IMG/VR virus record: IMGVR_UViG_2529292922_000010
From: a virus
Taxonomy: Duplodnaviria > Heunggongvirae > Uroviricota > Caudoviricetes
Reading direction: 5' to 3' (one strand)
DNA: 64,000 bases
This document shows, in pieces, positions 6,220 to 10,838 of the stretch. Within the stretch, counting starts at the first letter, position 1. Every line of letters starts with the position of its first letter. Below the pieces are notes generated by a model. It saw only the letters and a list, made by a program, of their open reading frames with translations. It did not search any database and was not told the DNA's origin. The translations under genes and the position numbers were made by a program.

Positions 6220-6342
6220 TCACTTAATAAAACAACTCCATGCGTAGTTGATGATTTTTTCCCACGTAATATAAATCTGCACTCCGGCAGTAAAACCAAA
6301 GCCAACAATTGCTGAAAAAATCAAAACATTTACTTTTGACAT
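6220..6342 (-). CDS. Small single-pass membrane peptide, 40 aa
   Basis: MSKVNVLIFSAIVGFGFTAGVQIYITWEKIINYAWSCFIK; absent from ORF track because under 60 aa. Confidence 0.35.
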   Translation of the reverse strand: MSKVNVLIFSAIVGFGFTAGVQIYITWEKIINYAWSCFIK

Positions 6343-6390
6343 TATAAATTTTCTCTCGGTGTCGTAGGTGATAGCACCATAATTGATAAT

Positions 6391-6642
6391 TTAGTGAGTT
6401 AGCAGTTCCATTTTTTGGATGATTTCCGCATGAGCATCATCGTTATCAACACTTAACTCGTTTAATGCCTCTCGCACTACATCAACTTCTTCTGGTTGGA
6501 AGAAGTCATCTCGGTAGTCACCAAATAGAACCGAAACAAGCCTGCCACCAGCAACATCAAGATTGGCGCTAACAGGTGGCTCTTTACCATCCTCAAATTC
6601 GACTACAAAAGTTATTTTTCCCATCGTTACCACCAGCGACAA
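6391..6642 (-). CDS. Acidic hypothetical protein, 83 aa
   Basis: ORF with coding-like composition; no motif. Confidence 0.45.
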   Translation of the reverse strand: MSLVVTMGKITFVVEFEDGKEPPVSANLDVAGGRLVSVLFGDYRDDFFQPEEVDVVREALNELSVDNDDAHAEIIQKMELLTH

Positions 6643-6706
6643 ATTGAATACAAACCCAGTGCTGCCGCCATCACAATTCCTACCGTGGTGAATGCTTCAG
6701 GCCAGC

Positions 6707-7915
6707 TCATTGATTCACCTCCTGCGGCGGTTCTGGTAGCGGCATCCAGTGTGACGGTTTCCACGACGCACCAGGAATTATCCACCCATCATTAGCGTCA
6801 GGATGCCCCGGGATGTAAGTAGCCCATTTCATTCGCCAGTCACCTTTCCTGTCAAACTCCACGGCAACAAGAACGGCTGTTTTGGTATTCGGCATTCGCT
6901 CACTACAGCTTATCCAACCATCCGGAGTTACCGGAGAATTGCCATTTACCAAGTCAGCTCGAACATATAGCGTGTCATCATGGTGCTGATTGTGGCTGCA
7001 CCACGTTAATTCGCTTAACTCGCCATCTTCTGGCCATACTCCAGCTGTTTGCAGCCAGATATGGGCTGGCGCATCCTGGCAAGGTGTATTAACTGGAAAC
7101 TTGTAAGTTTGGCTTACAGGTTGGCTACCCTGAAGCATGGCAGCGTGGCAGGCATACTCAACGCCCTTAACTGCATCTGCGCAGTAGTTATAGCGATTGC
7201 ATTCCACTAATTTCCGTTTGAGTTTTTCAATTGCCTGCGCGACATCAGCCTGTATTACAGGAACTGGCGGAACGGCTGTTTGCTCTCGAACGTCATTAGT
7301 CGCTATCGGTTCTGCTGCCAACTGACTGGCATATTTGTTAATGGTAACGATAAGCTCTTGCTCAGCCTCATCCAGACAATCACCGATACCTCGCCTGTCA
7401 CCGTCAAAATCATCGAAATCAGCACGAATCTTGGCAACCTTCTGGATTGCGGACAACACCTCACTAGGAATTACCGGATAGTTGGTTGACGTTTCCGCGA
7501 TTTCCCGAAAATTATTGGTTGACGAATTCTTGTTTTCCCGAAAGTTTCCGGACTGAAGCATGGCGGCGCGGCAGGCGTTCCAGCCATCAACATAATCAAA
7601 CGTATTGCTATCGTCTGGCTCGATTTCATCCGGCACTACCGGCTCTGGTTGGATAGTGACGTTGGCAAAGGCAGCACGCAAACCGGCCTTAATTTCCTCT
7701 ACTTCATCAGCGCCTAGCGATGAATCTGACAATGCGTGATGGAATGCGTAAGCCATGTCGTCGTTTACTGCAACCGGTTCTGCTTCCAGCGATGCCAGAG
7801 CAATTCGTGCCAGTTCTTCCGCTTCTTCTGCTGGCAGTACAACGTTGCTACCAGGTCCGTATGTTTCGCGCCACTGCTTGATTGTCAGCAGTCGCTCTTT
7901 GGTAATAGTGGTCAT
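6707..7915 (-). CDS. Prophage protein with C-terminal DUF551-like domain, 402 aa
   Basis: C-terminal ~70 aa (DGWISCSERMPNTKTAVLV...HWMPLPEPP) fits the DUF551 pattern. Confidence 0.55.
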   Translation of the reverse strand: MTTITKERLLTIKQWRETYGPGSNVVLPAEEAEELARIALASLEAEPVAVNDDMAYAFHHALSDSSLGADEVEEIKAGLRAAFANVTIQPEPVVPDEIEPDDSNTFDYVDGWNACRAAMLQSGNFRENKNSSTNNFREIAETSTNYPVIPSEVLSAIQKVAKIRADFDDFDGDRRGIGDCLDEAEQELIVTINKYASQLAAEPIATNDVREQTAVPPVPVIQADVAQAIEKLKRKLVECNRYNYCADAVKGVEYACHAAMLQGSQPVSQTYKFPVNTPCQDAPAHIWLQTAGVWPEDGELSELTWCSHNQHHDDTLYVRADLVNGNSPVTPDGWISCSERMPNTKTAVLVAVEFDRKGDWRMKWATYIPGHPDANDGWIIPGASWKPSHWMPLPEPPQEVNQ

Positions 7916-8768: not shown

Positions 8769-9416
8769 TTACTTACCTCCTTTGATGCGAATGCCAGCGG
8801 CGCGCTCGGCTTCACTTTGTTCCCAAAACCACTTGTGAAGCGCCATAAGCTTTTCGTCAATCGGTGCATATTTGCGATTAAAGTAGGCCTGAGCATCTTT
8901 CTCAGATTCGTCCGGTAATTCGCCAGGGCCAAACAGTGTGTTATAAATCCATGCTAGTCCGCTCTTAGCGTCGCCAGTTGCCTGCCATTCGATAATGGCA
9001 GCCTGCATGACCAGAATGTTTTTCCCGATTAATAGGTCCAGTTCTTTGTACCGGTTGCGGATGTATGCATTCTCGCTTTGTAATTTTGCGTTGCGCTTTT
9101 CTGAGGCTTCAAGTAACGCCTGCTTATCGCGTAGAGCTTCTTCCAGTTCAGCAACATGGCATTCACTATCAATAAGGTTGTTCTCTGCTGCTTCAAGCTC
9201 AACACGCAGCTTCCCAACCGTAAGCGCAATCTCCTCGTTCTCCTGGTCGCGGCGTTTGATGTATTGCTGGTTTCTTTCCTGTTCATCCAGCAGTTCCAGC
9301 ACAATCGATGGTGTTACCAGCTCATGGAAAAGGTCCGCGTCAAATCCCCAGTCGTCATGCATTGCCTGCTCTGCCGCCTCACGCAGTGCCTGATAGTCAA
9401 TTGTCATTCTCGCCAT
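8769..9416 (-). CDS. Ead/Ea22-like coiled-coil protein, 215 aa
   Basis: Coiled-coil-rich ORF with the pattern of lambdoid Ea22-like proteins. Confidence 0.5.
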   Translation of the reverse strand: MARMTIDYQALREAAEQAMHDDWGFDADLFHELVTPSIVLELLDEQERNQQYIKRRDQENEEIALTVGKLRVELEAAENNLIDSECHVAELEEALRDKQALLEASEKRNAKLQSENAYIRNRYKELDLLIGKNILVMQAAIIEWQATGDAKSGLAWIYNTLFGPGELPDESEKDAQAYFNRKYAPIDEKLMALHKWFWEQSEAERAAGIRIKGGK

Positions 9417-10072
9417 CCTTCACAGTTGTAATCACTACAGCCTTCAAAATCATATGGGCTGTACTGCCAGGTTATTTTTCCGCAATGCGGACAATTCCAA
9501 CGCACCTTCCCGCTTCGCGACTTCTTTCTTCTGTTCTGCTCTTTCAACCAGTCAGGCATGACCAAACCTGCGCCCTGAACCATTGTTCTGCGGTTAAAGT
9601 TATTGATATTGAACGTCCGGCGCTTTGCTGCATCAGCAATGGAAAATGGCAACCAAACTATTCCTGGTTCGTTTTTGTTGACGACGCTAAAGATGGTCGC
9701 TTTACTGAAGTCATCTGTTGGCAATCCACCGTGTTGAAGCCAGTAAACATCGTTGCCGTTCCAGCTACCTTTTTTGTAGGCCACATACTCAGTGCAATCT
9801 GACTCAATCAGGCTTTCTGTAGGGATGTACTGGCAATCAACGTGCCACACAGCCATTGCATCCACACTATCGGCACAAACAGGCTGATCGATATCTCGCC
9901 CACAATTCCAGGCTTTTTGGGCTTCTTCCAGCGTGTAAATATGAGCGCGATCGATATCAGAACTGTAACCATTGCCGTTATGGCAATGGAATGAGGCGTT
10001 ATTACCCACAGTTTCACGCAAGCACATCATGTAAAAACGGTTACTCACTGGTTGCCCCCTGAATACGCTCAA
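9404..10072 (-). CDS. Hypothetical protein with Cys-rich C-terminus, 222 aa
   Basis: CPHCGK...CSDYNC at C-terminus. Confidence 0.5.
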   Translation of the reverse strand: MSVFRGQPVSNRFYMMCLRETVGNNASFHCHNGNGYSSDIDRAHIYTLEEAQKAWNCGRDIDQPVCADSVDAMAVWHVDCQYIPTESLIESDCTEYVAYKKGSWNGNDVYWLQHGGLPTDDFSKATIFSVVNKNEPGIVWLPFSIADAAKRRTFNINNFNRRTMVQGAGLVMPDWLKEQNRRKKSRSGKVRWNCPHCGKITWQYSPYDFEGCSDYNCEGWRE

Positions 10073-10742
10073 ACTCGATTACCCACACCCAGGGATTAGC
10101 GTTCCAACTATCTTCGCCATAAATTGATTTCCATAGGCTACGGAAACCTGGGTAATGCTTATCGCCAATGAGGGTCGATTCTGTTGGTGCGCCCTCAGCC
10201 CTTGCATCGCATTCGCTGATATCGTTCAACCGCTCAACGCGCACGTTGGTAATTTCCACCAGGATGCGTGATGCCCATCGCGGCATGTGAATTGATGGAC
10301 GCCACCCACCATCAAACTTTTCATTCACAGTGTGAGGTTTCCAGTCGGCATCATCGGGTATCGACCATAAGCCGTAATCACCAGGCTTTTGCTCACAACT
10401 GGCCCGATAAATCCTTGCTGCGCTCTTCTCATCGCCACGACAAAGGTTGTCGTTCCAGTCCACACTGCAACCATCCTCATTGCCTAATATCGCCCATGTT
10501 TCACGAACCCAAATTCGATCGCCGACGATACCAAAGGGGCAATTGAAAACACTGCTTACACCATCAGCCCCGTACCACTGAAAACCTGCATCAATTTTTC
10601 TAACCATCACTGGTGCTTCTGGACCAACTTCCGCAGGCTGATTTTTCATTATCCGCCGCGTCTGCGTTTTCCTTCCTTCGAGGATGGCCCGGACCATCTC
10701 ATCGTTGAAAATCATGCCGCGCTCTTTCACTTCGCCTTTCAT
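10041..10742 (-). CDS. Hypothetical prophage protein, 233 aa
   Basis: N-terminal FNDEMVRAILEGRKTQTRR motif. Confidence 0.5.
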   Translation of the reverse strand: MKGEVKERGMIFNDEMVRAILEGRKTQTRRIMKNQPAEVGPEAPVMVRKIDAGFQWYGADGVSSVFNCPFGIVGDRIWVRETWAILGNEDGCSVDWNDNLCRGDEKSAARIYRASCEQKPGDYGLWSIPDDADWKPHTVNEKFDGGWRPSIHMPRWASRILVEITNVRVERLNDISECDARAEGAPTESTLIGDKHYPGFRSLWKSIYGEDSWNANPWVWVIEFERIQGATSE

Positions 10743-10751
10743 GCATCCCCC

Positions 10752-10838
10752 TTACCCATGCGCGACGATGCCGCCAAAAGTGATAGAGAACAGCCAGAAA
10801 TAGATCGCGGCCATAATGATTTTGAATGCCGAGTTCAT
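10752..10838 (-). CDS. Small hydrophobic peptide, 28 aa
   Basis: MNSAFKIIMAAIYFWLFSITFGGIVAHG with AGGAG RBS 8 nt upstream; not in ORF track. Confidence 0.3.
   Translation of the reverse strand: MNSAFKIIMAAIYFWLFSITFGGIVAHG

Follow-up and report, generated by a model that had tools for sequence, protein, structure and literature searches.

Phages P1 and P7 each possess an operon headed by an operator for C1. In the P1 record NC_005856, the annotation of which is reportedly that of Lobocka et al. of 2004, the operator OpmgT (formerly Op88) and two predicted sigma-70 promoters are followed by some 150 nt without annotation before pmgT begins; in P7, where the homologous operator is annotated as Op(hea), nothing is annotated between the promoters and upf86.8 either. 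We have analysed the 64,000-nt stretch of the virus record IMGVR_UViG_2529292922_000010 (hereafter, the window), which on the evidence of its sequence is a P1-like phage-plasmid (Punavirus). Our subject is three small open reading frames (ORFs) that a sequence-only reading had pointed out as unannotated genes for hydrophobic peptides: ORF1 (40 amino acids, aa), ORF2 (28 aa), which lies in the homologous unannotated interval, and ORF3 (81 aa). All three occur where that reading had placed them, with exactly the peptides it gave, on the minus strand, which it had left unstated.

The regions 5500-11500 and 41500-46500 of the window matched P1, P7, SJ46 and RCS47 in megablast, and also hundreds of non-mobilizable Escherichia and Salmonella plasmids of ~95 kb. 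A pattern search with the C1 operator consensus returned 10 matches in the window where 0.29 are expected; homologues of Op88/OpmgT are annotated in P1 and P7, those of Op53 and Op55 in P1. Rfam models recognised C4 antisense RNA, three tRNAs and one sok/hok leader. ORF1 and ORF2 are located in hypervariable region 8 (pmgT...humD) and ORF3 in hypervariable region 5 (rlfA/rlfB/pmgF) of P1-like phage-plasmids (PMC9603915), in keeping with the earlier remark that small predicted membrane proteins occur in phage accessory regions. For plaque formation by P1, pmgT, pmgU, pmgV, rlfA, rlfB and pmgF score as non-essential (PMC10695390).

The operator, the predicted promoters, a GC-rich hairpin and ORF2 are 98-99% identical between the window and the P1 Op88/OpmgT-pmgT and P7 hea operons (98.6% over the stretch in the P1 record); ORF2 has the same position after pap, and a pmgT-type start comes directly next. 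The cargo behind it differs: Ead/Ea22, DUF551 and other lambdoid-type genes in the window as against pmgT-pmgU-pmgV-upfM-O in P1. The ORF2 allele of the window is unique in specifying Ser at codon 3, where all other haplotypes have Thr. SJ46 has direct orthologues of ORF2 and ORF1 (J46_0098, 44 aa, and J46_0090, 40 aa) and, in BI168_gp017 (83 aa), a deeply diverged allele of ORF3.

Probable Small Membrane-Protein Genes in C1-Repressed Units

We consider it rather probable that the window carries three unrelated genes for small inner-membrane proteins, along with a fourth, the 27-aa ORF at 6627-6710, in C1-repressed transcription units within the two hypervariable regions. The three ORFs are real and conserved, and they are already present in public databases as uncharacterised hypothetical proteins. 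As to whether each is a genuinely translated gene, we have little doubt for ORF3, deem it likely for ORF2 and, to the same degree, for the 27-aa ORF, and lean only slightly that way for ORF1. Upon inactivation of C1, by induction or infection, the ORFs would be transcribed and translated; the products of ORF1, ORF2 and the 27-aa ORF would enter the inner membrane as single-pass helices, that of ORF3 as a hairpin of helices whose positively charged C-terminus would face the cytoplasm. The peptides may then be dispensable accessory factors that act on the host envelope or on membrane proteins.

The strength of ribosome-binding sites (RBSs) was scored as predicted anti-Shine-Dalgarno pairing, for which all 1161 minus-strand ATGs of the window give a background mean of −2.74 kcal/mol, and hydrophobicity as the best 19-residue Kyte-Doolittle mean. 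By the latter measure, the hydrophobic segments described before are indeed there, at 1.83 in ORF1, 2.10 in ORF2 and 2.1 and 2.2 in ORF3. The good RBSs formerly ascribed to the ORFs are found for ORF2 (−6.6 kcal/mol) and ORF3 (−6.3 kcal/mol), not for ORF1. As for their being unannotated, this holds for ORF2 in P1 and P7; for ORF1 (phrog_5525, J46_0090), ORF2 in SJ46 (J46_0098) and ORF3 (phrog_3772, RefSeq YP_009914631.1) it does not, and ORF3, at 81 aa (99 aa from an upstream GTG), would appear in a track of ORFs of 60 aa and over. Conservation in related elements had been proposed as a check, and the reading frames are conserved across hundreds of them.

ORF2 at the Head of the Op88 Operon

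ORF2 has pap (10937-11443) on one side and a pmgT-like gene on the other; what had been overlooked is that it is the opening cistron of an already known C1-controlled operon (Table 1). Initiation at the promoters annotated as predicted in P1, and repression of the Op88 operon by C1, are predictions that the sequence suggests. The TAA stop of ORF2 lies within the strong RBS of the pmgT-like gene (TAAGGGGGATGCATG). The P1 homologue (NC_005856, 84392-84478) is an open frame without annotation, and P7 likewise leaves ORF2 unannotated; an independent gene caller does call ORF2, and nr lists its 28-aa form as a hypothetical protein. The unit consisting of Op88, promoter, 5′ hairpin and ORF2 is kept in every P1-like element examined, P1 and P7 included. 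When the 151-nt leader was shuffled with dinucleotide composition preserved, an ORF of at least 28 aa arose in 18.5% of the shuffles and a similarly hydrophobic one in none of 2000.

The hairpin just downstream of the predicted pmgT promoters emerged from a terminator scan and from folding. On the plus strand it is followed by TTTTTATTTT and looks like a strong intrinsic terminator directed against pap and pmgT, for which we found no plus-strand gene or promoter that it could serve. The tail on the sense strand is only UUUCC in the window and UAUCC in most relatives; on this strand, the hairpin would give the ORF2 mRNA a 5′-terminal stem-loop.

The SJ46 "membrane protein" J46_0098 is a 44-aa version of ORF2. 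We rejected its start codon (10886 in the window), as it has no RBS and is situated inside the hairpin, and indels in relatives disrupt the frame: a 2-nt insertion (five haplotypes) and a 4-nt deletion (two haplotypes) between the ATGs at 10886 and 10838 abolish the 44-aa frame and leave the 28-aa one intact. The 28-aa call is therefore the conserved one, and the SJ46 call is probably over-extended at its N-terminus.

Variation was assessed in 80 viral-contig loci found via pap, an anchor chosen to be independent of ORF2. There is neither a frameshift nor a stop in ORF2 in the 49 haplotypes that keep the full region. Of its 87 sites, 16 are variable, as compared to 31 of 98 for the leader, which is untranslated; those polymorphisms of ORF2 that are common are either synonymous (GCG/GCA, ATC/ATT) or conservative. 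A special constraint on ORF2 at the nucleotide level (nucleotide diversity of 0.014 versus 0.044 in pap) was considered and discarded, since equally invariant 30-nt windows occur in pap and in the pmgT-like gene.

Mosaic and deletion junctions cluster at GGGTA|AGGGG (10748-10757, minus strand), a recombination boundary of unusual sharpness that coincides with the ORF2 stop codon. On the right-hand side, no fewer than eight different sequences are joined after GGGTA or GGGTAAGGGG, and in one junction 7 bp of microhomology (TGGGTAA) are shared with sequence that precedes the gene starting at 10072.

Some 280 conjugative or mobilizable IncF-type plasmids, e.g., pEC195-93k and pSUH-1 (2501-2584 of the fetched loci), carry an 84-nt remnant of ORF2 (codon 3 to stop+4, ~98.8% identical), flanked by IS1 and by the 3′ terminus of a type I hsdR. 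This remnant appears to be the fossil of a P1-like element, and it accounts for the entries named "membrane protein, partial" and for the R124/3 note of the P1 record.

ORF3 and the Neighbouring hok/sok Module

ORF3 matches phrog_3772 over its full length (E = 3 × 10^−54; residues 1-81 on profile positions 1-81 of 81) and is RefSeq YP_009914631.1, a "hypothetical protein"; the annotation pipeline PGAP calls it in most of the 335 plasmids with a complete ORF3. It starts 50 nt past the stop of repL, which belongs to the kilA-repL unit controlled by Op53. The homology with P1 breaks inside Op55/Orlf, the right half of which is CTGGAG in the window and TATAAC in P1, and ORF3 stands in the place of P1's rlfA-rlfB-pmgF.

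As had been proposed, ORF3 adjoins a hok module: its stop is 13 nt from the Rfam match to the sok/hok leader. The start of this match at 43699 fits initiation of the hok transcript at the promoter-like site that the final ORF3 codons overlap. Rfam's sok match is attributable to hok; ORF3 adjoins hok/sok and is not part of the module. Codons 45-81 of ORF3 accompany hok/sok in 77 of 78 loci, and the 3′ half (43712-43825) stays with hok/sok even where ORF3 is destroyed.

In the SJ46-type allele, which follows a lom/ail-like gene instead of repL, the N-terminal half is different, at ~16% identity, the length is 83 rather than 81 aa, the hydrophobicity is the same, and the motif Y-x2-IG-x3-Y-x2-SR-x2-L is retained. 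These two deep N-terminal alleles, similar in length and equally hydrophobic, are the best evidence that ORF3 encodes a protein. AlphaFold2 predicts two helices (predicted local distance difference test 69, predicted template-modelling score 0.33), a model too generic and of too low confidence for a fold search.

ORF1 and a Fourth Small ORF

ORF1 takes up 123 nt of the 178-nt gap between the phrog_3876 and phrog_1258 genes in a tightly packed minus-strand operon, and its TGA overlaps the RBS of the next gene (GTGAGG). It matches phrog_5525 over its full length (E = 1.2 × 10^−24; residues 1-40 on profile positions 1-40 of 40). UniRef and no fewer than 1000 contigs contain the exact sequence, the DNA is present in 225 plasmids, and ORF1 has an annotation in SJ46 and a gene call in a further collection. 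Dinucleotide shuffles of the gap give an ATG ORF of at least 40 aa in 3.6% of cases and a similarly hydrophobic one in 0.1%. Between the main alleles, the ratio of non-synonymous to synonymous substitution rates (dN/dS) is 0.24-0.41 (tiny counts), and in a diverged allele the frame is kept at 11% nucleotide divergence with an in-frame insertion of 9 nt. The alignment, judged by eye, shows clearly greater divergence in the 48-nt spacer upstream than in ORF1. The terminator scan showed no minus-strand terminator-like site between Op88 and ORF1, so that co-transcription from the Op88 promoters is plausible.

For the downstream phrog_1258 gene, we most likely have to place the start at 6212 (97 aa) and not at 6179, the 86-aa start used in SJ46: the RBS scores −9.6 kcal/mol at the former versus −1.5 kcal/mol at the latter, the 86-aa version matches only positions 12-97 of the 97 in the profile, and PGAP calls coding sequences of 294 nt.

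In addition, a scan for small ORFs outside long ORFs yielded the 27-aa ORF, the RBS of which (GGAGGTGA, −11.6 kcal/mol) is the strongest of the set. Its start overlaps the stop of the DUF551 gene (ATGA), and its own stop precedes the ATG of the next gene by 2 nt. It is conserved in ~70 fetched loci, and nr lists it under the names of hypothetical and "bacteriophage" protein; it matches no family of PHROG, Pfam or NCBIfam. ORF1 and this ORF are internal cistrons, ~4.5 kb further down the strand of ORF2.

Table 1. Coordinates in the window of the small ORFs, their signals and the adjacent genes.
Feature	Position	Strand	Description
phrog_1258 gene	5919-6212	−	downstream of ORF1; 97-aa start at 6212
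ORF1	6220-6342	−	40 aa, phrog_5525, single hydrophobic helix
phrog_3876 gene	6391-6624	−	upstream of ORF1
27-aa ORF	6627-6710	−	27 aa, MSWPEAFTTVGIVMAAALGLYSICRWW, hydrophobic; absent from the sequence-only reading
pmgT-like gene, phrog_874	10041-10742	−	RBS AAGGGGGA, −11.2 kcal/mol, overlaps the TAA stop of ORF2
ORF2	10752-10838	−	28 aa, MNSAFKIIMAAIYFWLFSITFGGIVAHG, single hydrophobic helix, first cistron of the Op88/OpmgT operon
ORF2 Shine-Dalgarno AGGAG	10847-10851	−	8 nt from the ATG; pairing −6.6 kcal/mol
GC-rich hairpin	10861-10893		15 bp; from terminator scan and fold; just downstream of the predicted pmgT promoters
C1 operator Op88/OpmgT	10921-10937	−	ATTGCTCTAATAAATAT, one mismatch to the consensus; overlaps the predicted sigma-70 promoters
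hok/mok/sok module	43375-43699	−	hok 43375-43530, mok 43382-43588, Rfam sok match 43525-43699 (114.8 bits)
Promoter-like site	43706-43733	−	TAGAAA-16-TACAAT with upstream TG; overlaps the last ORF3 codons; placed to start the hok mRNA
ORF3	43712-43957	−	81 aa, phrog_3772; predicted two-helix membrane hairpin, positively charged C-terminus
Op55/Orlf left core	43994-44004	−	ATTGCTCTAAT, conserved C1 operator core between the repL stop and ORF3
repL	44008-44853	−	lytic replication gene; kilA-repL unit controlled by Op53 (45753-45769); ORF3 follows

Searches for Families and Homologues

Toxins, holin-like factors and superinfection-exclusion proteins had been suggested as possible roles. No type I toxin, holin, Sie/Imm or defence model of Pfam, NCBIfam, PHROG or PADLOC matches ORF1, ORF2 or ORF3. 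Models of Hok/Gef, Ldr, Ibs, TisB and Fst gave nothing for any of the peptides even at E ≤ 1, and PADLOC found no match at E ≤ 0.1 for the three peptides and four neighbouring proteins. The only PHROG families matched by the peptides are the two named above, 5525 and 3772, both of "unknown function", and ORF2 falls into none of the PHROG, Pfam or NCBIfam families. Nor do lysis genes lie next to the ORFs, the neighbours of which are Ead/Ea22, DUF551, pmgT-like, repL and hok genes. These results lend no support to the roles suggested.

Word-indexed searches of 5.8 billion proteins yielded only relatives of ORF1 and ORF2 with at least 81% identity and, for ORF3, the mosaic SJ46 allele. A HMMER profile search with ORF3 in 1.84 billion representatives found none beyond the family save for a borderline 85-aa protein (E = 9 × 10^−4), and metagenomes, when scanned for ORF1, yielded no allele with greater divergence than the known 75% one. 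The homologues are confined to P1-like elements of Escherichia and Salmonella; in a scan of 185,579 species-representative genomes, ORF2 turned up twice, each time in Escherichia. Searching the literature for the sequences of the peptides found nothing, and a paper on the P1 virion proteome makes no mention of the ORFs.

No homologue of any of the peptides, nor pap, was found in region 45000-91159 of D6, a phage distantly related to P1. The D6 gene orf88 (31690-31842 of the fetched locus), the first cistron of an accessory operon of lambdoid type, encodes a hydrophobic peptide of 50 aa without similarity to ORF2, of which it is a positional analogue. The small Upf ORFs of P7 (91.3, 91.6 and 91.7) were considered as relatives and proved unrelated.

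Two further observations concern the surroundings. A 78-aa ORF at 25129-25365 (minus strand), near the tRNA genes, has a very hydrophobic segment with a mean of 2.8 and matches phrog_1130, "membrane protein" (E = 6 × 10^−16); it adds one more small membrane gene to the element. Between pmgS and pap, on the coding strand, there is a terminator-like hairpin (11469-11497, minus strand; 11 bp, then TTTTTTT), which suggests that pap is not simply co-transcribed with pmgS.

Alternative Explanations

A number of observations weigh against a set of translated membrane-protein genes, and several of them favour other accounts. Translation of all the ORFs is throughout something that we infer, and no homologue outside the P1-like lineage gives a functional hint. 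In ORF2, only 4-5 of the 16 variable sites are at the third codon position, which is no excess (65% in pap and 61% in the pmgT-like gene, as controls), and ~10 non-synonymous to 6 synonymous sites are not distinguishable from neutrality. In some alleles, the join replaces the ORF2 stop and adds 9-37 residues at the C-terminus, and only one class of mosaic junction falls inside ORF2, at codon 19 in two haplotypes. Such tolerance and lack of third-position bias would suit a leader ORF whose peptide has no function: by loading ribosomes at the 5′ end of the Op88 transcript, its translation would shield the leader from Rho and RNases and hand ribosomes, by termination-reinitiation, to the recombined cargo gene. 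Indeed, ORF2 fills most of the leader between the predicted promoters and pmgT, its stop is inside the next RBS, and its head is joined to the various downstream sequences at precisely that stop. Still, we hold this explanation to be unlikely. The pmgT-like gene has a very strong RBS of its own, by which coupling is not obviously needed, and folding shows no sequestration of that RBS; a leader ORF has no need of a near-invariant hydrophobic helix of 20 residues, the like of which never arose in shuffles of the leader; moreover, the few common polymorphisms are synonymous or conservative.

Some of the remaining evidence would fit a chance frame in a T-rich spacer, hydrophobic by virtue of U-rich codons, for ORF1 and, with less probability, for ORF2. 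The RBS of ORF1 is at background level (−3.0 kcal/mol), PGAP does not call it, and among 33 haplotypes its variable sites are spread evenly over the codon positions (9/7/9), with 19 non-synonymous to 6 synonymous sites and with disruption by a frameshift (L231), an ATG-to-CTG change (L194) and a loss of the stop (L229); dN/dS against the diverged allele is 0.6-0.84, and all the dN/dS values rest on 7-17 substitutions. Hydrophobicity alone is not special, as a mean of at least 1.6 is reached by 32 of the 314 six-frame ATG ORFs of 25-60 aa in the window. We think a chance frame improbable too, in view of the rarity of hydrophobic ORFs of this length among the shuffles, a frame that survives the divergence and the insertion next to a more variable spacer, a dN/dS of ~0.3 between the main alleles, the tight packing and a PHROG family of its own. 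Furthermore, a deletion has removed ORF3 in 8 of 78 loci, and an insertion of the IS605 type has destroyed it in further ones; it is also seen truncated at codon 14, the skew of its polymorphism within a type is slight (22 non-synonymous to 11 synonymous), and its 3′ half apparently persists in disrupted loci through linkage to hok/sok. This linkage, and the size and hydrophobicity of the peptides, could be taken to mean that at least one of them is a membrane toxin (a type I toxin with a cis-antisense RNA, a holin-like factor or a superinfection-exclusion protein), the more so as the opposite-strand terminator-like hairpin ends ~20 nt upstream of the ORF2 RBS, where an antisense RNA over the start would terminate, and as the plus strand across ORF2 folds better than shuffles (z = −2.45). 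We give this little credence. None of the toxin, holin, exclusion or defence models matches, ORF3 is entirely upstream of the hok transcript, and the hairpin could equally well be a stabilising 5′ stem-loop of the sense mRNA. For ORF2, the idea of a type I toxin with an antisense RNA was provisionally set aside, as neither the promoter scan nor manual reading of 10700-10860 disclosed a plus-strand promoter-like site within or 3′ of ORF2, and Rfam returned no antisense RNA family there, only chance-level matches.

Like Hok/Gef, Ldr, Ibs, TisB and Fst, the peptides are small, have a single hydrophobic helix and come from a plasmid-prophage location; in contrast, they share no sequence similarity with these toxins, and neither an antisense RNA nor a fold-back leader was detected at the ORFs. 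Toxins of the Hok/Gef type are specified by stand-alone mRNAs, whereas the ORFs of the window are ordinary cistrons in long operons. Of small membrane effectors, phage- or SOS-induced, T4 Imm, with two helices, acts in exclusion, and the 29-aa SidA of Caulobacter blocks division; the two would compare with the peptides in size, topology and expression linked to derepression, without known homology.

Implications for P1-Like Phage-Plasmids

We retain the reading of small membrane-protein genes in C1-repressed units, under which translation of ORF2 would probably also feed ribosomes to whichever cargo gene follows. Its value is mainly one of annotation: the P1 reference and the PGAP-annotated P1-like plasmids omit ORF2, a conserved and well-signalled first cistron, and two small internal cistrons, and the ORFs are ordinary, lineage-restricted, hypothetical small membrane proteins.

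A bolder possibility, to which we would assign a very low probability, is that ORF2 is a functional inner-membrane effector of 28 residues, the invariant first product of the Op88 operon, which has stood unannotated in P1 for two decades. Such an effector might block a host membrane process, e.g., division or transport, or, as a toxin, it might be restrained by an antisense RNA terminating at the hairpin of the opposite strand; if ORF2 were maintained by selection, the junctions at its stop codon would be accounted for. If ORF2 is functional, it would be a new early product of a classic model phage, and it would help to explain why recombination recurs at the same nucleotide in the cargo region of P1-like elements, which are themselves vehicles of resistance genes.

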